From: Candidatus Borrarchaeum weybense
Lineage (GTDB): Archaea > Asgardarchaeota > Sifarchaeia > Borrarchaeales > Borrarchaeaceae
Direction: 5' to 3'
Length of the DNA: 64,000 nucleotides
NCBI GenBank assembly: GCA_019057385.1
Contig: JAHQJS010000004.1
Coordinates: 948,727-1,012,726, forward strand
Below the pieces are notes generated by a model, which was not told the origin of the DNA, made no database searches, and saw only the letters and a list, made by a program, of their open reading frames with translations. A program made the translations under genes and the position numbers. Below are positions 4,877 to 59,555 of this stretch, in pieces (the first letter of the stretch is position 1; each line of letters opens with the position of its first letter).

Positions 4877-6994
4877 TTATTTAACTTTAGGAAGTAGCAT
4901 ATGAAAGGTACTCCCTTCACCAATTCGACTTTCCGCCCATATTTTACCGCCGTGCATCGTCACATATCTTTTCGTGATAGCTAGTCCTAGTCCTGTGCGT
5001 TCGAACTCGGATGGGAAGTGAACGGATTCAGGAATATCTGCTACGTGAAACGGCTGAAATATCTTTTCAAGATCCTCTTCTGCGATACCTATTCCCGTGT
5101 CTTTCACCGTGACGTGGAGGTTTTCTGCCTCTTCCAGTAATGTGATATCGATTGTACCGCCGTCAAGAGTGTATTTGATGGCATTGGAAAGCAGGTTGCC
5201 AAAAATCCTATGTATTATTTCTTTATCTAGGTAAATAAAAGGCAACATCTTAGGAGTAGTGAGTTTAAGTATATGCCTGTGTTTTAATGCTAGTGGAAAG
5301 ACTTCTTTGACAGTTTGGATAGCAACGGTTTTAAGTGAGCCTAACGCCATCTTCGGTTTTATGGTACCTGCTTCTAGGTGAGAGTAATCAAGGAGGTTGT
5401 TTATAAGCACGGCGAGTCTTTTAGCATTCCGAGAAATAATCCCTATCCTTCTATTAACATCTGCAGGAAGATTCATGTTTTTACTTGTTATTTCAAGAAG
5501 TTCGACATGTGCTTTCAGGGCGCTTAATGGAGTTCGAAGTTCATGGGCAGCTACATTGATGAACTGTGTTTTCATTTGCTCAAGTTCCTGTCGCTCGGTG
5601 ATATCCTTCGCCACTTCCACAATAGCTACAATGCTTCCCTCGGCGTCTCGTACTGGAGAACTTGTGACCAGGATATGACTACGCCTTCCCTCCGGAAGTA
5701 TGTTAACTCGTTCCGAAATAACTGTTTTTCCTTCATTAAACACCGTCTCGAAATAACAGTCAGGACAGCGTTCATCTAAACCCTTATACGCTTCGTAACA
5801 CTTCTTACCGATGACGTCTCCCCAGACGTCCTTCATTGGCTGATTCATCCAGATGATGTCTAAAGCCTTATTTTGGATCGTGATTTGGTCTCCGATTCCA
5901 GCCAACATTGCCTTGAGTTTTTCTTCTGATTCTTTTAAGGCCTTTGTTCGTTCCTCAACGATCTTTTCCAGGTTTTCGGCATAGTCTTTCAGTTTTTTTT
6001 CCAATAGTTTTCGTTCAGTGATATCTTTAAACACTTCCACAACTGCTACAATGTGTCCCTCAGCGTCTCGTACTGGAGAACTTGTGACTAAAACAGGAAT
6101 ACTCCTTCCATCCAGAAGTACGCTAACTCGTTCCGAAACAACCGTTTTTCCTTCATTAAACACCGTCTCGAAATAACAGTCAGGACAGGGCGCATCTAAT
6201 CCCTTATACACTTCGTAACACTTCTTATCGATGACGTCCCCCCAGATGTCCTTTATTGGCTGATTCACCCAGATGATGTCTAAATCCTTATTTTGAATCG
6301 TAATTTGGTCTCCAATTCCGGTCAAAATTGCCTGCAGTTTTCCTTTCGATTCTTTTAAGGCCTTTGTTCGTTCCTCAACGATCTTTTCCAGGTTTTCAGT
6401 ATACTCTTTCAGTTGTTTCTCCAATTCCTTTCTTTTCTCAACGATCTTTTCTAGGTTTTCAGCATACTCTCTTTGTTTTCTCTCCAATAGTTTTCGTTCA
6501 GTGATATCCTTGCCCACATCCACAATAGCTACGATGTTTCCCTCGGCGTCTCGTACTGGAGAACTTGTGACCAAAATAGGAGTCCGCCTTCCATCCGGAA
6601 GTATATCAACTTGTTCCGAAACAACCGTTCTTCCTTCATTAATCATCGTCTCGACATAACAGTCAGGACAGGGCACATCTAACCCCTTATACACTTTATA
6701 GCACTTCTTACCGATGACATCTCCCCAAATATCCTTTACTGGCTGATTCATCCAGATGATGTCTAAAGCCTTATTTTGGATCGTGATTTGGTCTCCGATT
6801 CCGGTCAAAATTGCCTGCAGTTTTCCTTTCGATTCTTTTAAAGCCTTCGTTCGTTCTTCAATGTTCTTTTCGAGATTTGCAATATGTTCTGCTATCTTTT
6901 CCTCAGTCTGCTTGCGATCAGTGATCTCTCTTTTTATCGCATCCTTTACATCTGTTGGAACATCTTCCCTATCTAAATACTCTTGTAAGTCCGT
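4877..6994 (-). CDS. Soluble triple-PAS sensor histidine kinase (frame open to an ACG at 6994)
   Basis: Three PAS/PAC repeats, H-box AAHELRTP, N-box NLLSNAIKY, DTGIG and GLGL boxes; reading frame open 62 codons upstream of the called TTG. Confidence 0.9.
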   Translation of the reverse strand, partial: TDLQEYLDREDVPTDVKDAIKREITDRKQTEEKIAEHIANLEKNIEERTKALKESKGKLQAILTGIGDQITIQNKALDIIWMNQPVKDIWGDVIGKKCYKVYKGLDVPCPDCYVETMINEGRTVVSEQVDILPDGRRTPILVTSSPVRDAEGNIVAIVDVGKDITERKLLERKQREYAENLEKIVEKRKELEKQLKEYTENLEKIVEERTKALKESKGKLQAILTGIGDQITIQNKDLDIIWVNQPIKDIWGDVIDKKCYEVYKGLDAPCPDCYFETVFNEGKTVVSERVSVLLDGRSIPVLVTSSPVRDAEGHIVAVVEVFKDITERKLLEKKLKDYAENLEKIVEERTKALKESEEKLKAMLAGIGDQITIQNKALDIIWMNQPMKDVWGDVIGKKCYEAYKGLDERCPDCYFETVFNEGKTVISERVNILPEGRRSHILVTSSPVRDAEGSIVAIVEVAKDITERQELEQMKTQFINVAAHELRTPLSALKAHVELLEITSKNMNLPADVNRRIGIISRNAKRLAVLINNLLDYSHLEAGTIKPKMALGSLKTVAIQTVKEVFPLALKHRHILKLTTPKMLPFIYLDKEIIHRIFGNLLSNAIKYTLDGGTIDITLLEEAENLHVTVKDTGIGIAEEDLEKIFQPFHVADIPESVHFPSEFERTGLGLAITKRYVTMHGGKIWAESRIGEGSTFHMLLPKVK
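5600..6860 (-). repeat. Three near-identical tandem PAS+coiled-coil modules within the kinase gene
   Basis: GIGDQITIQNK.LDIIW.NQP.KD.WGDVI.KKCY..YKGLD..CPDCY repeated three times with high DNA identity. Confidence 0.9.
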
Positions 6995-51257: not shown

Positions 51258-52784
51258 ATGATGATTCAGACCATCAAACTCCGAATGTATCCTGATGAGG
51301 CACAAGAATATCAACTCCATGAAATCTTTACCATCTATAACCGGGTGAAACGCATTGGTTACAACCTGCTGTTTCATAACGAGGACTACATGGTAGAGCG
51401 CTTCGATGAGGGTAAAACCATCCAACAGTGTTTGATGAGTCTGTGCCACAATAACCCTTATGTCAATACTATCTTGATTGACAACAAGGCGCAACTGGAA
51501 TCACAAAAGACGTGGCTGGAAAAACGACGCACACGCATGACACAGCAGCTACAAGTCATCATCAAGAAAATCAAAACAATAAAAGAGAAAGATACACATG
51601 ACAGACGGTTGAAGGGCTTATACGCCCGTAGATCCTCAATAATGGCTAAACTGCGCAATTTACACCTCGAACCTGTGGTATTTGGCACTAAGAAATTATT
51701 CAGAGACAGAATACGCGGCAACATAAGTAGGGAAGAGTTCAGGATACGACGGGATTCTTCTTTCAGTTGCATTGGAAAGCAACAGGGAAAAAACCTGAAC
51801 ATTAAAGTATTGCCCAGAAAAACCGTCAAGATACGCACCTTTTCCAAGCAAAAAGGATGCAAATGGCTGATCATTTCCCTTTCCGTAAACTCTGTGCAGG
51901 AAAAATGGTTTCAAGATATTTTTAATTCCGACAAATACACGGTGACCGTGAAACGGAAGTTTTTCAAGGGGACGGTGCGTTATTTTGTCCATGTTTCTTA
52001 TGAAATTCCAGAACCTGTACCACGTTGTGGCTACGAACATGGTGCCATCGGATTAGATTTCAACTATAATTTTGTTGCCCTGACCAATGTCGATCAACAT
52101 GGTACATTACTCTCTTATCATACCATTTCGTTTTGCAACCTCCACAGCTATCGAACAAATAAACGTAGCGATTACATCTCTTATAAGATGGATAAAGTCG
52201 TCAATTATTGCATCAATAAGGGCAAGGGCATCGTGGTCGAGGACTTACAATTCGGCCAAGAGTTTTACTATAATAAAAAACGCAACCGAAAATTCAGCAA
52301 TATGAAGACCACTGCCTTGCAGCTGTTAGAGAGAAAATGCAAAAAGCGAGGTGTGTCCTTTCGAAAGGTATTTCCTGGATATACCTCCATAATCGGGAGG
52401 TATAAGTATTCAGGATTACATAATTTGTCAACACATCACTTAGCAAGTTATGTAATAGCTCGAAGGGGTTTAGGTTTCAGGGAAGTCATTCCAGCCATCT
52501 ACGATTGGGTGTCCTCACAAGTCGGGGAGTTCATAGAACCCCGTTTGAAACAGGATAGTCCTTACCGTAGATGGTCGATGATCCATGACCTCTTCAAGCA
52601 CAGTGGGATAACTTCCTTCAAGGCTGCCGAAATACTTAAAAAAACAGTATTAATGAGGCATGTTTTGCACTCGGTGACGAGCGCACAGCCCGATAACCTT
52701 AAGGCTGGTTCTTCCTTCTTGAAAGCAGGGAGAATTGATGATTATTATAAAGTGTGGAATTTTATAACTAATCCCACATTATAA
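51258..52784 (+). CDS. TnpB-related protein with non-canonical RuvC-III and no zinc finger
   Basis: QTIKLRMYP, GLDFN (RuvC-I), VVEDL (RuvC-II), V.PGYTS.IG..KY, HHLASYVIARRG in place of the RuvC-III Asp motif. Confidence 0.8.
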   Translation: MMIQTIKLRMYPDEAQEYQLHEIFTIYNRVKRIGYNLLFHNEDYMVERFDEGKTIQQCLMSLCHNNPYVNTILIDNKAQLESQKTWLEKRRTRMTQQLQVIIKKIKTIKEKDTHDRRLKGLYARRSSIMAKLRNLHLEPVVFGTKKLFRDRIRGNISREEFRIRRDSSFSCIGKQQGKNLNIKVLPRKTVKIRTFSKQKGCKWLIISLSVNSVQEKWFQDIFNSDKYTVTVKRKFFKGTVRYFVHVSYEIPEPVPRCGYEHGAIGLDFNYNFVALTNVDQHGTLLSYHTISFCNLHSYRTNKRSDYISYKMDKVVNYCINKGKGIVVEDLQFGQEFYYNKKRNRKFSNMKTTALQLLERKCKKRGVSFRKVFPGYTSIIGRYKYSGLHNLSTHHLASYVIARRGLGFREVIPAIYDWVSSQVGEFIEPRLKQDSPYRRWSMIHDLFKHSGITSFKAAEILKKTVLMRHVLHSVTSAQPDNLKAGSSFLKAGRIDDYYKVWNFITNPTL

Positions 52785-52918: not shown

Positions 52919-53326
52919 GTGAATAAACAAACTGATTTACAAAATAATAAGGAACTTTATGGCGTTTTCAATGAATTAAGGAACTATTTAGCCGGTATGG
53001 CTGCTGGTATGACTCGTGATGAAAGTTTAATACAAGAATTGATACCTCTTCTCTTTTGTAAAATTTATACTGAAAAAAATATAGATTTGAAAGATAAGTT
53101 TCGAGCAGAATCAAAAGAATCAGCCGGTGTTATAAAAAGGCGGATTTCAGCAATTTTCAAAATGGTTAAGAAAGAATTTGAGGATATTTTTGAAGAAGAG
53201 GAAAAAATTGATCTAAAGGCGGAATCAGTTAAGTTCATTGTCAGCAAGCTGCAAAATCATGATCTAACGACGGTGGATCAAGATGCAATCGGAAATCTGT
53301 TTGAATCCTTCCTTGGTCGATCGTAG
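52919..53326 (+). pseudogene. N-terminal fragment of an N6-adenine MTase (HsdM-like) paralog
   Basis: GMTRDESLIQELIPLLFCKIY...DAIGNLFESFLG aligns to 56093..58666; stops about five codons before GQFFTP. Confidence 0.85.
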
Positions 53327-53595
53327 CCAAAGATACCAATTTGCTCGTAGCTAAAACAACTAATACTGATACTAAAATGTTACTCAAGCAGATTTGATTG
53401 TTTTGTATAATTAGTAGATGGTATCTAGTGTACAACTGATTTTCTCATTATTTACAAACAACTAAAATCTCAAATAACGTCTATAAACCACGAAAATTTA
53501 CTATCATACTTTTACTGTGGTCTCTCTCTAGTAAAATATATTATATTTCATAATTTTTCTAGAGAGCATGTATGTATTCTATCGAGGTTGTAAAC

Positions 53596-54408
53596 ATGAA
53601 ACAAACAAAAAAACAGATCGTGGTTCGTGCCTATACTCCAATAGCTAAACCTCATAATGTGTCTATTCAAAAAAATTCCACTATGCTTCTTCTAGGTGAA
53701 ATTTCTTATGAAAGTGGTTCGAAAGCATTCAATACAAAACTGTATTACATTAAAGGGGTACGCGGAATGTTGAGGCATGCCGCCATGTCTCTTGCTCAAG
53801 ATTGTGGTATAGAAGTCTGCCATTCCAGTGAAAAAACTGAGCTCAAAGATGGGACTCAACTCGTTCCTTCTGGTTTCCATCCTCTTGGCTCATGTGATCC
53901 TCCTTGTATTCTCCGAAGAATCTTTGGCACCTTCCGCGAAGAATCCTCAATCTCCGTCTTAGTTGATCCTATTGCTTCGATAAAGCATAAAGAATACACT
54001 ACTGAGTTACCTGCTCAAAAAGTCCATATCGCCACTGAAAATAGGATAGCCCTTACTTATGATAGAACGGCTATTCAAGATTTTCGTGAAAGCTATTTCA
54101 GCGGGTATTTTAACTTCGTAATCGACATCACAAATTTAACCGATGATGAGATCAAGTTCATCGTGGAATCGTTGCTCTACATCGAAACACTTGGCAGTGG
54201 CAAAAATGCTGGTTATGGATATATCAAGATTCTAGAGGTCGAAATCCAGAATGTACATGTTTTGCGAAACATCACGATGGATAACGGAGTATATAAGATC
54301 ATTGAAGAAATCGAAGTAAAACCGATACTACTTGAAAACATCGAAGAATGGAGAAACGCGTATATGAGAGAAAATCTGATAAAAATTGAACAACAACACT
54401 CCACTTGA
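53596..54408 (+). CDS. Cas7/Csm3-like RAMP protein
   Basis: First strand RAYTP, KGVRGMLRH helix, C...C..PC..RRIFG, ENRI thumb, G-rich loop LGSGKNAGYG; GAGGT RBS. Confidence 0.85.
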   Translation: MKQTKKQIVVRAYTPIAKPHNVSIQKNSTMLLLGEISYESGSKAFNTKLYYIKGVRGMLRHAAMSLAQDCGIEVCHSSEKTELKDGTQLVPSGFHPLGSCDPPCILRRIFGTFREESSISVLVDPIASIKHKEYTTELPAQKVHIATENRIALTYDRTAIQDFRESYFSGYFNFVIDITNLTDDEIKFIVESLLYIETLGSGKNAGYGYIKILEVEIQNVHVLRNITMDNGVYKIIEEIEVKPILLENIEEWRNAYMRENLIKIEQQHST

Positions 54409-54665
54409 TTAGTTGTGAAAGGGCGTGAGAAATAATGGAGATTTTCTCTTCTAAGACGCTCATCGCCCGCTTTTTCTCAGCTAAGACGGAATACTTCTTG
54501 TAATCTGCAAGAAGCACGTTCTTATGTGAGAGACAGTTATTATAGAGGTCCCAAACCTCGGTTGATGGGGAAAGAATGTCCGGCAGAGGGATGAATAAAA
54601 CGATAACTACTTTACCAAAAGGGTTACAAAAGCCGTTACTTTCCCATGGTCTTATATCTCCCGTT
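54409..54665 (+). ncRNA. Putative structured guide-like RNA, copy A (scaffold 54409-54610 plus variable 3' segment)
   Basis: Multi-hairpin intergenic region with motif string shared with 55537-55698. Confidence 0.7.
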
Positions 54666-54708
54666 TAAATGACAAAAAATTTAAAACATCCTATAGTGGT
54701 GCTGAAAA

Positions 54709-55512
54709 ATGCCAAAAAGATGGTTTAAATTATCTGGTGTAACTAAAACTCCAGTGATCACGAAAAAAAGACATTTTTTTCATAAATTTGGGGTAATTAC
54801 CATTAATGGTAGTCCTAGAGTGTTCGGTAAACTTACGAAAGGTGAGAGACGCGCTCCTATGACCTTTAGGGCATGGCATGGAACAGTAGAGTTTATTATT
54901 CCTCACTCAAAACTCGAACCAGCGCTCGCTATTGAAAGTATCGGGAGATATACCCATGAAGGGATGGGGCAAATACTGTGGACAAGTGTAAAACAACTCC
55001 CCAAAAGACCTCTCTATACTCCAAAAAAAATTAGGATTCGTAAAATGCTCCCAAAACTTTCAGATACATGGGAAAAACTAATGATCGCCATGTTACTACA
55101 TGATTTCGTGAATACTGAAAAACATTCCAGCAAAATTTACTCTGAGGTTACTATCGTTGATGACGACGTATATAATCTAGCGAAAAATCATCATAATTAC
55201 GAGATGGATGAAAGGGAATTGCCCCTCCTCGCTACCCTCCAACATTATGACCAAGTTTCTTCCTCAATTTCTCGAAAGTTTAGGTGGTCTACCTCCTCAC
55301 GTTATCGTGCAGATATTCAAGAGAAAATAGATTTTGATACACTAAAAAGAGAGATAGAATTGAGAAAACATTCTCTTTATGCTCTTTATAGCTTCATCTA
55401 TAAGTCTCAAGTACTTAATGAGATCAATGAGGCAATAGAATTTGGTTTCTCTTCTTTAAAAAACCATCTTCTTCTGATGGTCAATCTCTTTCTTGATGAC
55501 CTTTATGGATGA
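54709..55512 (+). CDS. Compact Cas5-like RAMP fused to HD nuclease domain
   Basis: VTKTPVI first strand, IGRYTHEGMG G-rich loop, then LLHDF...HH...YDQ..S HD pattern. Confidence 0.75.
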   Translation: MPKRWFKLSGVTKTPVITKKRHFFHKFGVITINGSPRVFGKLTKGERRAPMTFRAWHGTVEFIIPHSKLEPALAIESIGRYTHEGMGQILWTSVKQLPKRPLYTPKKIRIRKMLPKLSDTWEKLMIAMLLHDFVNTEKHSSKIYSEVTIVDDDVYNLAKNHHNYEMDERELPLLATLQHYDQVSSSISRKFRWSTSSRYRADIQEKIDFDTLKREIELRKHSLYALYSFIYKSQVLNEINEAIEFGFSSLKNHLLLMVNLFLDDLYG

Positions 55513-55536
55513 GTTTTTATGTCACAAGTTATGGTG

Positions 55537-55780
55537 TTGCAATCCCTCTTTACAGATAAATATACAGGATGCAAGACGGACTGTTCATCGCATATCGCGA
55601 TGAACACGTTCTTGTACATGAGACTGAACCCGAGAGGTCCCACGCCTCAGATGACGGGAATGGATGACAGGCCAAAGGACGAGAAAAGTGATAAATACGG
55701 ACACTTTTTCACGCCAAGAAACGTTGTCAGATTCGCTATTACCATTAATGATCCTAGGAATGGTAATGGCATCCTCCCTA
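55537..55780 (+). ncRNA. Putative structured guide-like RNA, copy B (scaffold to 55698 plus hsdM-like 3' segment)
   Basis: Same motif string as copy A with compensatory hairpins; followed by T-tract. Confidence 0.7.
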
Positions 55781-55794
55781 TTTTTTTATTTTTT
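55781..55794 (+). terminator. Archaeal poly-T terminator candidate
   Basis: TTTTTTTATTTTTT right after RNA copy B. Confidence 0.5.
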
Positions 55795-55803
55795 CAATAA
55801 TAG

Positions 55804-56092: not shown

Positions 56093-58666
56093 ATGCCGAC
56101 ACGAACGAAATCAGTTGAAAAGGTTTCCTTTGCTGAGGAACGCGTCAAAGGACAGATGAGACTTATTGATTTTATTTCTGGAAGTTTAGTTGAAGCCACA
56201 CCTGAAGAGGTAGAGGCTGTTCAGGTCTTTTCTCGCAGATTGGTCGAAGAGTTTGGATATGATAAAAATCAAATCCAAACAAGACCTCAATTTAAAATCC
56301 GGGGCGCACCGTCAGGTAAACCAAAATATCCTGTTGACATAGCCGTCTTTAATGACGAAAAAAAAACCCATGGCAACTTGTTTATGATTGTCGAATGCAA
56401 ACGAAAGACTCGTCGAGATGGAGAAAAGCAACTGAAAATATATTTGGGACTATCAAGTGCTCAGATAGGAGTTTGGTTCAATGGTAGTGAGCACCTCTAC
56501 CTACAGAAGATTCTCGACAAAGAGGGAAATGTAACCTACAATTTAATTCCCACGATTCCCAAAAAAGGACAAAGAATTGAAGATATTGGCAAATACAAGC
56601 GAAAAAACCTGACGAAACCGAGTAATATAATCTCTTTGTTCAAAGATATTAAGAATCACTTATACGGAAACGTCGTAGGAATTACTCGTGATGAAGCTTT
56701 AATACAAGAAATAATGAATCTACTATTCTGCAAAATATACGATGAACTGAATACTGCTCCGGAAGATGATGTTGCTTTCAGAGTAGGAATCAATGAAGAC
56801 TCGAATCAGGTCAAGGAGAGAATCTCTGAGCTATTCAAGTTTGTGAAAATAGCATACGAGGATATCTTCGAAGAGCGAGACGAATTACGTCTTGATCCTG
56901 ACTCACTTTGTTATGTTGTTGGCGAATTGCAACCTTATAGTCTGTCAGAAGTAGATAGTAACGCAATAGGCGATGCGTTCGAGGTATTCATTGGAAAGGC
57001 GCTCAAGGGTGCCGAGGGGCAGTTTTTTACACCTCGAAATGTGGTTCGAATGGCTGTTGAGATACTTGACCCACAACCCTACGAACATATCGTTGATCCT
57101 GCATGCGGTAGCGGAGGTTTCTTAATATTTGCAATGGAACATGTGTGGCAAAAACTTAAGATTGAAGCTAAAAGAAAGAATTGGTCAACCGAAATGCTAC
57201 AGAAAAGAAAGACAGAAATTGCGAGCAAATTTTTTGGTGGAATTGACAAGGACATGTTCCTAGCAAAAGTCACAAAGGCTTACATGGCACTAATAGGTGA
57301 CGGTAGAGGCGGAATATTCTGTGAAAACTCTTTAGAATTCCCAGAAAAATGGCAGGCGACTACCCAACAAAGAATAATGCTTGGTAAATTTGATGTTCTA
57401 TTTACTAATCCTCCCTTCGGATCAAAGATCACTATCAAGAAATCATTGTATTCTCAGTTCGAGTTAAGCTTTAAATGGAATAAAAACAAAAAAACTGGTA
57501 AGTGGAAGAAGGGTAATAAACAGGCAGACAAAAGACCACCGCAAGTTCTGTTTATTGAGCGATGTTTACAATTTCTTGCTCCAAACGGAAGAATGGCAAT
57601 CGTTTTACCTGATGGTTTATTAAGCAATCCCAGCGATGGTTATATTACACAGTATATCAAGGATAATGCTGAGATCATTGGACTCGTCGATTTACCAATG
57701 AGTACTTTCTTACCTAATACACCCACGAAGACACATATTTTGTTCTTAAGAAAGAAAAAACCTGAGGGGAACTATCCAATCTTTATGGCCTACGCGAAAA
57801 CTTGTGGACATGATAAGAGAGGGAAGATCATCTATAAAGTCGGTGAAGCTGGTCAAAATGTTGTTGATGATGACATTTATGAAATATCAAAGCATTTTGC
57901 TCGCAGATATGAAAGAGTTAATAAATATGATAGGAAGGGATTTCTTGTTTATCTTGACGATTTAAAGTCAGGTATACTGTTACCGAAATATTATAATCCA
58001 GAATTGAATGAGAGATTAGAAGCGTATCGACAGACTGGTGAATATGACGTTTATTCTATAGGTGATTTAGTTAAACTGGGAAAGTTGTGGATAAGGAGAG
58101 GCCATGAAGTCGGATCTGTGAATTATGGAACTGGCGATATCCCGTTTATTCGGACTTCGGAAATATCAAATTGGGAACTAACTGCCGATCCTACTCATTG
58201 TTTAGCCGAGGATATATACGAGGAATACAAGGATCGCCAGAAACTAAAAAAAGATGATATCTTAATTATAAATGATGGTACGTACCTAATGGGTCGAACC
58301 GCGATACTTTCTGAAAATGATACAAAAATTGTTGTTCAAAGTCACATCAGAATTCTTACAGTCTTAGACCGAGAATTTATTCACCCTTATCTTTTGTTGT
58401 TCCTCTTAGGATTGAGAATTGTTCAAGAACAGATTGAGTCGAAATCCTTTAGACAAGCTACTATCTCTACTCTAGGAAACAGACTTCTTGAAATCAGAAT
58501 CCCACTACCAAAAGATGAAAAAGTAAGAAAAGAAATTGTTGAGCAAGTTTCTAACATAGTTGAGAAGCGCTCGATGCTAAGACATAAGGCGATGAATATT
58601 GAATTCAATGGAACATCAGAGAGTGTTATGGGTATAAAAAACAAGGCAACCTTGGGAAATCTATAG
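56093..58666 (+). CDS. Single-chain restriction-modification enzyme (HsdR-N-like nuclease + N6-MTase + specificity domain; type IIG/IIB-like)
   Basis: PEE...Q, PVDIAV...IVECK nuclease; GQFFTP, DPACGSGG, NPPF; C-terminal TRD (IPFIRTSEI, DDILI, I.IPLP). Confidence 0.92.
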   Translation: MPTRTKSVEKVSFAEERVKGQMRLIDFISGSLVEATPEEVEAVQVFSRRLVEEFGYDKNQIQTRPQFKIRGAPSGKPKYPVDIAVFNDEKKTHGNLFMIVECKRKTRRDGEKQLKIYLGLSSAQIGVWFNGSEHLYLQKILDKEGNVTYNLIPTIPKKGQRIEDIGKYKRKNLTKPSNIISLFKDIKNHLYGNVVGITRDEALIQEIMNLLFCKIYDELNTAPEDDVAFRVGINEDSNQVKERISELFKFVKIAYEDIFEERDELRLDPDSLCYVVGELQPYSLSEVDSNAIGDAFEVFIGKALKGAEGQFFTPRNVVRMAVEILDPQPYEHIVDPACGSGGFLIFAMEHVWQKLKIEAKRKNWSTEMLQKRKTEIASKFFGGIDKDMFLAKVTKAYMALIGDGRGGIFCENSLEFPEKWQATTQQRIMLGKFDVLFTNPPFGSKITIKKSLYSQFELSFKWNKNKKTGKWKKGNKQADKRPPQVLFIERCLQFLAPNGRMAIVLPDGLLSNPSDGYITQYIKDNAEIIGLVDLPMSTFLPNTPTKTHILFLRKKKPEGNYPIFMAYAKTCGHDKRGKIIYKVGEAGQNVVDDDIYEISKHFARRYERVNKYDRKGFLVYLDDLKSGILLPKYYNPELNERLEAYRQTGEYDVYSIGDLVKLGKLWIRRGHEVGSVNYGTGDIPFIRTSEISNWELTADPTHCLAEDIYEEYKDRQKLKKDDILIINDGTYLMGRTAILSENDTKIVVQSHIRILTVLDREFIHPYLLLFLLGLRIVQEQIESKSFRQATISTLGNRLLEIRIPLPKDEKVRKEIVEQVSNIVEKRSMLRHKAMNIEFNGTSESVMGIKNKATLGNL

Positions 58667-58718: not shown

Positions 58719-59555
58719 TATAAAATCGATAAGAATGGAGATAAACAACTCGATGATGATCTTTTGCAAATAGGTAAGCGATATCATGATCTACGTCAAA
58801 ATTTTAATGAAAAATATGACCATCTAGGTTTTTTCATTGACGTACAGAATTTAAAAAAAGGAATTCTCATGCCAAAATATTACAACCCAGAAATCAAGAA
58901 TGAATTAAGGAGGCTTAAAGAAACAGGCCATTATGATTTGGTAAGTATTGGAGAGTTGGAGGGACAAAACACACTCCAGATAAGTTGTGGTCACGAGATA
59001 GGTTCTATAAATTATGGCACAGGAGATATTCCTTTCATTCGCACCTCTGAAATAAGTAACTGGGAGATTGCAGCAGATCCGACTCATTGTGTTTCAGAAG
59101 ATATCTATGAGATGTACAGAACAAAGCAGGATCTACAGAAAGACGATATTCTTATTGTAAATGATGGGACCTACTTAGTTGGTCGAACTGCAATTCTATC
59201 AGAATTTGATGTGAAAATTGTTATTCAAAGTCATTTTAGAAAAATTCGTGTTCTTGATTGGAGTGACTTGACGCCGTATCTTTTGCTTTATCTGTTAGGT
59301 TTGAGAATAGTTCAGAATCAAATAGAAGCGAAAACATTTCGCCAGGCTACTATCTCGACTCTTGGAAATAGACTGCGAGAAATCATTCTGCCTATTCCAA
59401 AGAATTCCAAACTTAAAGCAGAAATTTCTGAAAGTGTAGAACTCATCGTTGGGAAACGTGCAAAATTACGGAATCAGGCTATGCACATGCAATTTGATGA
59501 TAAAAAAGAGAATGTGATGGGACTGCAAAATAAAGCAGCCCGTGGTAATATCTAG
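58719..59555 (+). pseudogene. C-terminal (specificity-domain) fragment of a paralogous R-M gene; may be expressed from TTG 58764
   Basis: Highly similar to the C-terminal third of 56093..58666; homology extends upstream (YKIDKNGDKQLDDD) with no start codon. Confidence 0.75.

Follow-up and report, generated by a model that had tools for sequence, protein, structure and literature searches.

The array-less ARAMP (Asgard RAMP) systems pose the question of what, if anything, takes the place of the CRISPR RNA (crRNA) in them. A locus in Candidatus Borrarchaeum weybense offers a concrete candidate. Within a 64,000-nucleotide (nt) stretch of contig JAHQJS010000004.1 (positions 948,727 to 1,012,726; hereafter the window), a gene for a Cas7-like RAMP protein and a gene for a small RAMP fused to an HD domain (RAMP-HD) are each followed by a copy of one motif, termed scaffold A and scaffold B. 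Comparative analysis indicates that this motif is a structured element of ~130 nt on the sense strand, with covarying helices, a promoter at many copies and a position at the end of each gene unit. We assign a probability of roughly 40% to the reading that the RAMP/HD pair has this element as its cognate RNA partner, with the RNA marking the 3′ end of the unit and reading into the flanking DNA.

From left to right, the locus and its flanks hold the following features.

52919..53323, + strand: left fragment of an N6 DNA methylase pseudogene, a cassette flank outside the cassette (blastx)
53440..53571, + strand: RAMP upstream region, with a degenerate 45-nt promoter-like element (ATTTACAAACAAC...) and a hairpin (comparison with paralogous cassettes)
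53572..54408, + strand: Cas7-like RAMP gene, 278 amino acids (Pfam RAMPs, PADLOC Csm3, AlphaFold/Foldseek)
54481..54611, + strand: scaffold copy A, structured element 3′ of the RAMP gene (covariance model, 92 bits, E 5e-20)
54612..54708, + strand: HD-gene upstream region, kept among paralogous cassettes (45-nt element, TATA-like box, weak hairpin-like inverted repeat)
54709..55512, + strand: gene for a predicted small RAMP with Cas10/Csm1-type HD domain, 267 amino acids (invariant HD residues, VIA-align)
55519..55570, + strand: scaffold B upstream region, homologous to B-type promoter regions, with a degenerate TATA box
55571..55699, + strand: scaffold copy B, structured element 3′ of the HD gene (covariance model, 141 bits, E 7e-32)
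55699..55758, + strand: right fragment of the methylase pseudogene, flank (blastx)

A covarying element specific to one ARAMP subfamily

Both protein-coding genes are present, intact and co-oriented, and the covariance model places one copy of the motif after each stop codon at a spacing of 1,090 base pairs (bp), as an earlier note made from the sequence had described. Scaffold A is preceded by a T-rich tract and has no promoter of its own; scaffold B forms the 3′ boundary of the conserved unit. The two copies share ~72% column identity, and their likeness stops at GATAAMTAC. Tandem Repeats Finder detected no CRISPR-like array in the 64-kb window, again in line with that note, and the only repeats at RAMP/HD loci are the 130-nt scaffolds themselves.

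A motif profile built from copies A and B recovered 25 full-length copies in the genome. Twenty of these occupy fixed cassette positions ("A" copies follow the RAMP gene, "B" copies the HD gene, and a third is sometimes present), and the remaining five comprise one copy after an HD fragment and four orphans. With 20 of 25 copies at fixed cassette sites, the resemblance between A and B cannot be put down to chance. Among paralogues, conservation of the scaffold core is far higher than that of coding DNA, whose synonymous sites are saturated (82% compared with 69-71% in one example).

RNAalifold predicted a 5′ hairpin, a long-range helix (CGUUCUU/AGGGACG), two short helices and a conserved GAGGU/GCCUC hairpin. 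This structure was evaluated on 40 copies from other genomes that had played no part in model building: 91% of alignment cells pair compared with 81% after shuffling, in an alignment that was itself fitted with the model and so leans somewhat towards the structure. Two-sided changes occur at sixteen pairs, a number reached by 0 of 500 shuffles, and pairing falls to 39-57% in slid-partner controls. Many pairs are G-U on the sense strand only. Single-sequence folding of the copies was not separable from shuffles (z -1.5 and -0.4), so the case for structure comes from covariation rather than from the folding of individual sequences. On this footing the motif is a structured element of the sense strand, as the earlier note had supposed. 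Additional 3′ helices (GAC/GTC; GGGGAUG/CAUACCC) were dropped, their variants either breaking pairs or falling in the variable tail.

The element matches no Rfam family at gathering scores over the window, and searches at E up to 5 over 54400-55800 returned only chance matches of miRNA level, outside the motif. The covariance model detected copies in all four other genomes of the genus (3-21 each) and in one genome of another family of the same class (33), and in 0 of 55 other searched genomes of the phylum. A metagenomic cassette with 76% RAMP identity carries both scaffold copies, and the core pattern found no exact match in viral contigs. The element is confined to a single ARAMP subfamily, which occurs in two related families of Asgard archaea. 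The earlier note knew of no description of such an RNA, and none was found in the searchable ARAMP literature (PMC8730458, PMC12669027).

The two proteins

The first protein matched Pfam RAMPs (5e-7) and PADLOC Csm3 (5.5e-8). Its AlphaFold model, with a predicted local distance difference test (pLDDT) score of 88, found type VII Cas7 as the best Foldseek hit (6e-8), followed by Csm3, type IV Cas7 and Cas7-11; a profile search of solved chains also ranked type VII Cas7 first (4e-5) and reproduced this order. The modelled protein thus has a Cas7 fold, in keeping with the earlier assignment. Five of its residues are invariant (C83/H84/H103/C108/C112) and probably form a zinc-binding site.

The RAMP-HD model (pLDDT 88) consists of two domains, residues 1-108 and 118-267. 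Its Pfam HD match is weak (0.022), and Foldseek on the RAMP-HD model gave no match below E 0.001. By VIA-align, residues 118-267 superpose on the HD domain of Csm1/Cas10 (6ifk_A 2-215) with Z 8.4 and a root-mean-square deviation of 3.4 over 136 residues; residues 1-108 resemble Csf, Cas6, Cmr3/Csm4-type and type VII Cas5 RAMP chains with Z 6-7. The HD residues H131, D132, H139, H161, H162, D181 and H253 are invariant among 29 homologues. These models make the second protein a small RAMP fused to a Cas10/Csm1-type HD domain. The fusion proposed in the earlier note is therefore borne out, except for its Cas5 label: the N-terminal domain (Foldseek E ~0.01 at best) is RAMP-like, with Cas5 and Cas6 indistinguishable.

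In the predicted complex, the N-terminal RAMP domain of RAMP-HD contacts the Cas7-like protein with a score of 0.70, compared with 0.00 for the best of three controls. On calibration, scores at this level were obtained for 58 of 80 solved complexes and for 2 of 110 mismatched pairs; the runs had at least 60% of contacts in common, and partner pLDDT was at least 66. Because Cas5-Cas7 complexes have already been solved, the predicted contact may reflect likeness to these rather than binding. Relative to the sister locus, the ratio of nonsynonymous to synonymous divergence (dN/dS) is 0.19 for the RAMP gene and 0.29 for the RAMP-HD gene at a dS of ~0.068, and both proteins appear to be under purifying selection.

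The locus is a copy of ARAMP without helicase-Cas1

ARAMP has been described as an array-less, CRISPR-like and type III-derived system, a distant relative of the haloarchaeal HRAMP, mostly accompanied by a distinct Cas1 and usually by HNH and PD-(D/E)xK nucleases (PMC8730458, PMC12669027). Its mechanism was termed enigmatic in a 2022 review (PMC8730458), and both ARAMP and HRAMP appear in the 2025 CRISPR classification as array-less systems. The locus in the window combines a diverged Cas7-like RAMP, an associated nuclease (here an HD variant), the absence of an array and an Asgard host; a divergent Cas1 is missing from it. As Cas1 has been reported for most ARAMPs only, this lack does not bar membership. 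Neither the Palm/cyclase domains of Cas10 nor Cas11, Cas6, Cas14 or an array could be seen at the locus. Of the type III hallmarks Cas10 (with Palm/cyclase domains) and CRISPR array, only the HD domain of Cas10 is matched, and the RuvC-type nuclease of OMEGA systems is absent from a cassette that encodes RAMP and RAMP-HD alone. The locus is a helicase-Cas1-less copy of ARAMP, a known array-less derivative of type III CRISPR-Cas, and its proteins are not new but belong to the module already described, which confirms the earlier suspicion that they might have been catalogued.

Homologues of both proteins were found in Asgard archaea only, the named ones belonging to Promethearchaeota, Sifarchaeia, Hodarchaeales, Kariarchaeaceae, Heimdallarchaeota or Borrarchaeum. 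The genome itself encodes 11 RAMP and 10 full-length HD paralogues with 37-79% identity. Directly upstream in six of the paralogous cassettes lies an open reading frame (ORF) of 1,320-1,360 amino acids, which is split in a seventh. In cassette c2 this ORF (1,330 amino acids) encodes a Hel308/Ski2-type helicase with a C-terminal Cas1 domain (Pfam Cas_Cas1 2.8e-6, above cut-off; PADLOC Cas1 1.4e-12). With phmmer, the C-terminal 331 residues of the c2 protein matched no solved Cas1 structure, whereas family profiles did match Cas1. The proposal of a minimal two-protein effector has to be given up for a copy of ARAMP, at six paralogous loci of which a helicase-Cas1-type ORF is added (the fusion being shown on c2). 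The 64-kb window contains no paralogous cassette and hence none of the accompanying helicase-Cas1 genes; the window copy lacks a Cas1 gene, with a TnpB-like ORF and the methylase fragment upstream instead.

Cassettes vary in their further content. Cassette c6 carries a GIY-YIG nuclease gene (~96 amino acids; C4:903657-903947) between scaffold B and a third scaffold C, and this c6-lineage gene is kept in two other genomes of the genus (L087, L111). In another genome (L113:1292-3018; G004:C9), three scaffolds stand between the RAMP and HD genes, separated by gaps of 131 and 98 nt, and one follows the HD gene; the first of the three is set off from the RAMP gene by ~860 nt that contain small ORFs. 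In a head-tail (pro)virus (L074:8001-9516; also L075 and L076), a RAMP/HD pair is flanked by the genes for the portal and the large terminase. Its RAMP is 49% identical to that of the window, ORFs of 132 and 81 amino acids precede it, and the covariance model gave only a chance-level match of 17 bits there.

Unit boundary, flanks and promoters

Across all cassettes, likeness sets in at the start codon of the first gene and breaks off at the final bases of the last scaffold. In the window, likeness to the paralogous cassettes ends at ~55693-55698, and the methylase frame resumes at 55699. By blastx, the left flank corresponds to residues 169-303 of the intact paralogue at 56093-58666, with 53323 as the last aligned base, and the right flank to residues 309-328 from 55699, which is the covariance-model end of scaffold B. 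The cassette thus lies within a methylase pseudogene, which also supplies the "variable 3′ segment" of copy B. A duplicated unit, probably mobile once, has its 3′ end exactly at the motif. Sister genomes show the identical insertion with the identical flank. Alignment of filled with empty sites did not recover precise insertion boundaries, intergenic DNA being too diverged between species.

After the A-type copies, ~45 nt and a TATA box are conserved across paralogous cassettes. The abrupt end of similarity noted earlier therefore applies to the comparison of A with B and not to copy A among its paralogues. This 45-nt segment resembles a site upstream of the RAMP gene only when both belong to the same cassette clade (scores of 28-38 compared with a background of 9-17). 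In the window copy the two no longer match (local score 9, equal to background), and the inverted repeat at 54612..54708, weak here, is a clear hairpin in the paralogues. Clade-wise matching may stem from gene conversion, or from sites that co-evolve or share a recognition event specific to their cassette. In cassette c7, C4:421712-421750 and C4:422779-422817 agree at 38 of 39 nt, and similar pairs occur in the c2/c4/c6 and c5/c8/c9 clades.

B-type copies have a different upstream geometry. Of 40 B-type copies, 23 have a TATA-like hexamer between -42 and -24; its most common start is -30 from AAGRCGG, the usual archaeal distance for a putative transcript start at this conserved sequence, and in many copies after an HD gene the TATA box thus stands ~27 nt upstream. 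Copy B of the window lacks the TATA box; A-type copies have no promoter and do not adjoin a start codon. The 3′ flanks of B-type copies are wholly different even between close cassettes, and blastn-short of 3′ flanks against the genome returned only homologous flanks and the promoter element. A CRISPR-like reading of tandem copies was rejected, the 31-40-nt "spacers" being the promoter of the next copy.

Because the motif is the exact 3′ end of the unit, the sequence after it is not an acquired spacer. The variable segment that had been proposed as a guide resolves into two unlike tails, a clade-conserved promoter element after copy A and the methylase pseudogene after copy B.

A candidate RNA partner and the points against it

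If the element is the cognate RNA of the pair, it would be made as a sense-strand transcript, often from its own TATA box and starting at AAGRCGG in B-type copies, and by read-through from the RAMP gene in A-type copies. In this scheme, the scaffold would serve as an oversized 5′ handle bound by the Cas5-like domain of the HD protein, and the Cas7-like protein would coat the RNA downstream of it. The resulting complex would carry a flank-derived 3′ segment, as the omega-RNAs of TnpB/IscB read into transposon flanks, and its role may lie in element upkeep or self-regulation rather than in adaptive immunity. What the data show are the folds of the proteins, the RNA structure with its distribution, the geometry of the promoter and the boundary of the unit; that the element is transcribed, that the two proteins bind it and that it has any guide function is what we infer.

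A more far-reaching version, doubtful when taken as a whole, would make ARAMP a selfish Cas1-mobilised element that uses a class 1 (Cas7/Cas5-HD) RNA-guided nuclease as IS200/IS605 uses TnpB. Scaffold B, transcribed from its own promoter into the flanking DNA, would guide the complex to copies of the site that lack the element and thereby serve homing or retention in polyploid cells, and the tail of scaffold A, which co-varies by cassette clade with the site upstream of the RAMP gene, would guide the complex to its own promoter for self-regulation.

Several observations weigh against an RNA partner of the RAMP/HD pair. Distant pairs have overlapping genes that leave no room for a scaffold and yield no significant covariance match; these comprise a Heimdall-type locus, a Hodarchaeales locus, the head-tail provirus pair and the divergent c10 of the same genome. 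Scaffold A is dispensable at the locus: in the sister loci L077/L079 most of it is gone through a 145-nt deletion between TACTT microhomologies, leaving AAGACGGAA, in genomes with intact proteins (96% protein identity). Between scaffold B and its counterpart at the sister locus, 9 of 130 positions are different, as many as the synonymous rate (dS 0.068) would give, a small count with which mild constraint is compatible. Tandem copies are parted only by the promoter of the next copy, which leaves their 3′ segment without guide-like content. Genome G005 contains 33 scaffolds together with HD fragments only, its RAMP and helicase-Cas1 genes not being found in an assembly that is 80% complete, in 300 contigs, with many scaffold copies at contig ends. 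Orphan copies directly before housekeeping genes, moreover, are plausible promoter-plus-leader units. The earlier note had named loss of the RAMP fold, absence of the scaffold from homologous loci and its occurrence apart from the genes as signs against its proposal; the fold is present, while the scaffold is undetected at distant homologous loci and also occurs away from the genes.

Scaffold A has the lowest score among the cassette-borne copies of the genome (two orphans score lower), and the window copy looks partly decayed at the RNA level, with its proteins still selected.

Competing explanations

The explanation that survives best after the RNA partner, less likely than it and on balance improbable, is that the element is a portable promoter-plus-leader RNA, or a small selfish repeat, at the ends of ARAMP units, kept where it drives the next gene and with no tie to RAMP/HD. 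Many copies in relatives terminate in AAAGGTGAT, which resembles a Shine-Dalgarno sequence and is followed by exactly 6 nt and the ATG/GTG of an unrelated gene (acyl-CoA dehydrogenase, eS19, GlmM, a GIY-YIG gene and others), with the TATA box of B-type copies at the right distance. In the window genome, the orthologues of those housekeeping genes are without the element, representing empty sites. The many copies of G005, where no RAMP gene was found, and the synonymous rate of change of scaffold B in the window point the same way. A free-standing leader does not, however, account for 20 of 25 copies lying at fixed cassette positions, always in gene orientation, nor for A-type copies that lack both a promoter and an adjoining start codon, and ~26 conserved base pairs would be superfluous in it. 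Furthermore, several orphans retain C-terminal HD remnants of varied length, which makes these orphans cassettes truncated from the 5′ side and not insertions in their own right; where one relative has the orthologue of the c2 site, the 3′ scaffold half is all that is left beside the same flank.

A second explanation, to which we give clearly less weight, is that the element acts as DNA, serving as an end or attachment site for a helicase-Cas1 integrase, with its hairpins read in single-stranded DNA. The element is the precise right end of the duplicated unit, most full loci encode Cas1, cassettes occupy many unrelated sites and the inside of a broken gene, and remnants retain the 3′ end with the 5′ side truncated. 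The left end, by contrast, has no matching element or inverted repeat, conservation starting at the start codon of helicase-Cas1, and copy A is internal to the unit. Its many G-U pairs are kept on one strand only and its TATA box at a fixed distance points to transcription, while the window copy and cassette c1 carry the element without a Cas1 gene.

Improbable, too, is that the scaffold is the coding sequence of a protein of ~50-90 amino acids, translationally coupled to the preceding gene. One frame is open through most scaffold copies, with an ATG 6-7 nt after the HD stop codon (in the window, within 55519..55570); its product would begin with hydrophobic residues (MLQIMILVFLF...), the peptide ...TFLCMRLNPRGPTP...GMDD... 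recurs, and most indels are multiples of three. The frame is in phase with the start codon where a gene follows, and in the window it fuses to the methylase fragment as a 93-amino-acid ORF. Its substitutions among close copies nevertheless carry no codon signature: the synonymous fraction is 0.32, compared with 0.26-0.28 in the other two frames, and changes are as frequent at second codon positions as at third. Nor is the stop conserved: the frame extends 10 to 474 nt into unrelated flanks, and its most variable "residues" fall in a hairpin that is perfectly compensated. The open frame is an unexplained feature rather than a gene.

Least probable is a programmable single-guide RNA that has taken up its hypervariable 3′ segment as a spacer from an invader: the complete divergence of B-type flanks even between close cassettes and the Cas1 encoded at paralogous loci would suit it, but it is largely refuted by the identity of those flanks, which are host DNA (the methylase pseudogene, gene starts, convergent gene ends, the promoter of the next copy), are retained at orthologous loci of sister genomes, and show no repeat-spacer turnover, no match elsewhere in the genome and no array.

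Relation to known systems

The cassettes share with ARAMP their restriction to Asgard archaea, diverged RAMPs nearest to type III, an attached nuclease, the lack of an array and, at six paralogous loci, Cas1. They differ in having a predicted Cas10-type HD domain fused to a small RAMP where reviews list HNH and PD-(D/E)xK nucleases, and in a conserved, structured candidate RNA that ends each gene unit, whereas those reviews (PMC8730458, PMC12669027) mention no RNA component. The backbones of types III and VII (Csm3/Cmr4; type VII Cas7, 8yhd/8yhe) have in common with the window pair the Cas7 fold, a small-RAMP partner that may be Cas5-like and a Cas10/Csm1-like HD domain, and the predicted contact between Cas7 and RAMP resembles their Cas7-Cas5 packing. 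Their handle is an 8-nt, repeat-derived sequence, in contrast to the 130-nt folded scaffold of the candidate RNA.

With OMEGA (TnpB/IscB) systems the cassettes share a structured RNA that ends a multi-copy element and would read into the flank, as well as non-autonomous or RNA-only remnants; the end of the structured RNA coincides with the element boundary here as in OMEGA. OMEGA proteins are unrelated RuvC proteins, whereas the cassettes encode a class 1 RAMP/HD pair and contain a second, internal RNA copy, and their guide activity is hypothetical. HRAMP is likewise an array-less Cas5/Cas7 derivative with associated nucleases, from a different host group and with a different gene set, its relation to ARAMP being taken from a statement in the literature.

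Should the RNA act as a guide by reading into the flank, transposon omega-RNAs would gain in it their first class 1 counterpart, and it would tie Cas1 and RAMPs to mobility in the lineage of archaea closest to eukaryotes. Should it be only a portable promoter-leader, it would explain functional regulatory relics of decayed cassettes before housekeeping genes.

Neighbouring genes and further repeats

A 508-amino-acid TnpB-like ORF (51258-52784, + strand), with weak matches to the OrfB_IS605 helix-turn-helix and to a Cas12f1-like TNB domain (E ~0.05), lies directly upstream of the methylase fragment and occupies the same place in the sister loci L077-L080 (499-507 amino acids); it is an element separate from the cassette. 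Downstream, the intact 857-amino-acid HSDR_N + N6_Mtase gene (56093-58666, + strand) is type IIG/type I-like and is followed by a 263-amino-acid ORF (58764-59555, + strand) that duplicates its C-terminal target-recognition part. The broken methylase flanking the cassette is a third relative, 42% identical. At positions 5591-6885 of the window, long tandem repeats with a period of 420-483 nt (~2 copies, 86-87% identity) probably represent a repeated coding domain.

A perfect palindromic repeat of ~44 nt (ATTCTACCTGAAA...TTTCAGGTAGAAT) is present in four copies in the genome and in up to 13 in relatives, with sites at L062:517-562 (equivalent to C4:747518-747561) and L121:1380-1425. It occurs 270 nt upstream of a helicase-Cas1 gene and, in relatives, exactly at the truncation point of decayed cassettes, beside an HD remnant or half a scaffold.

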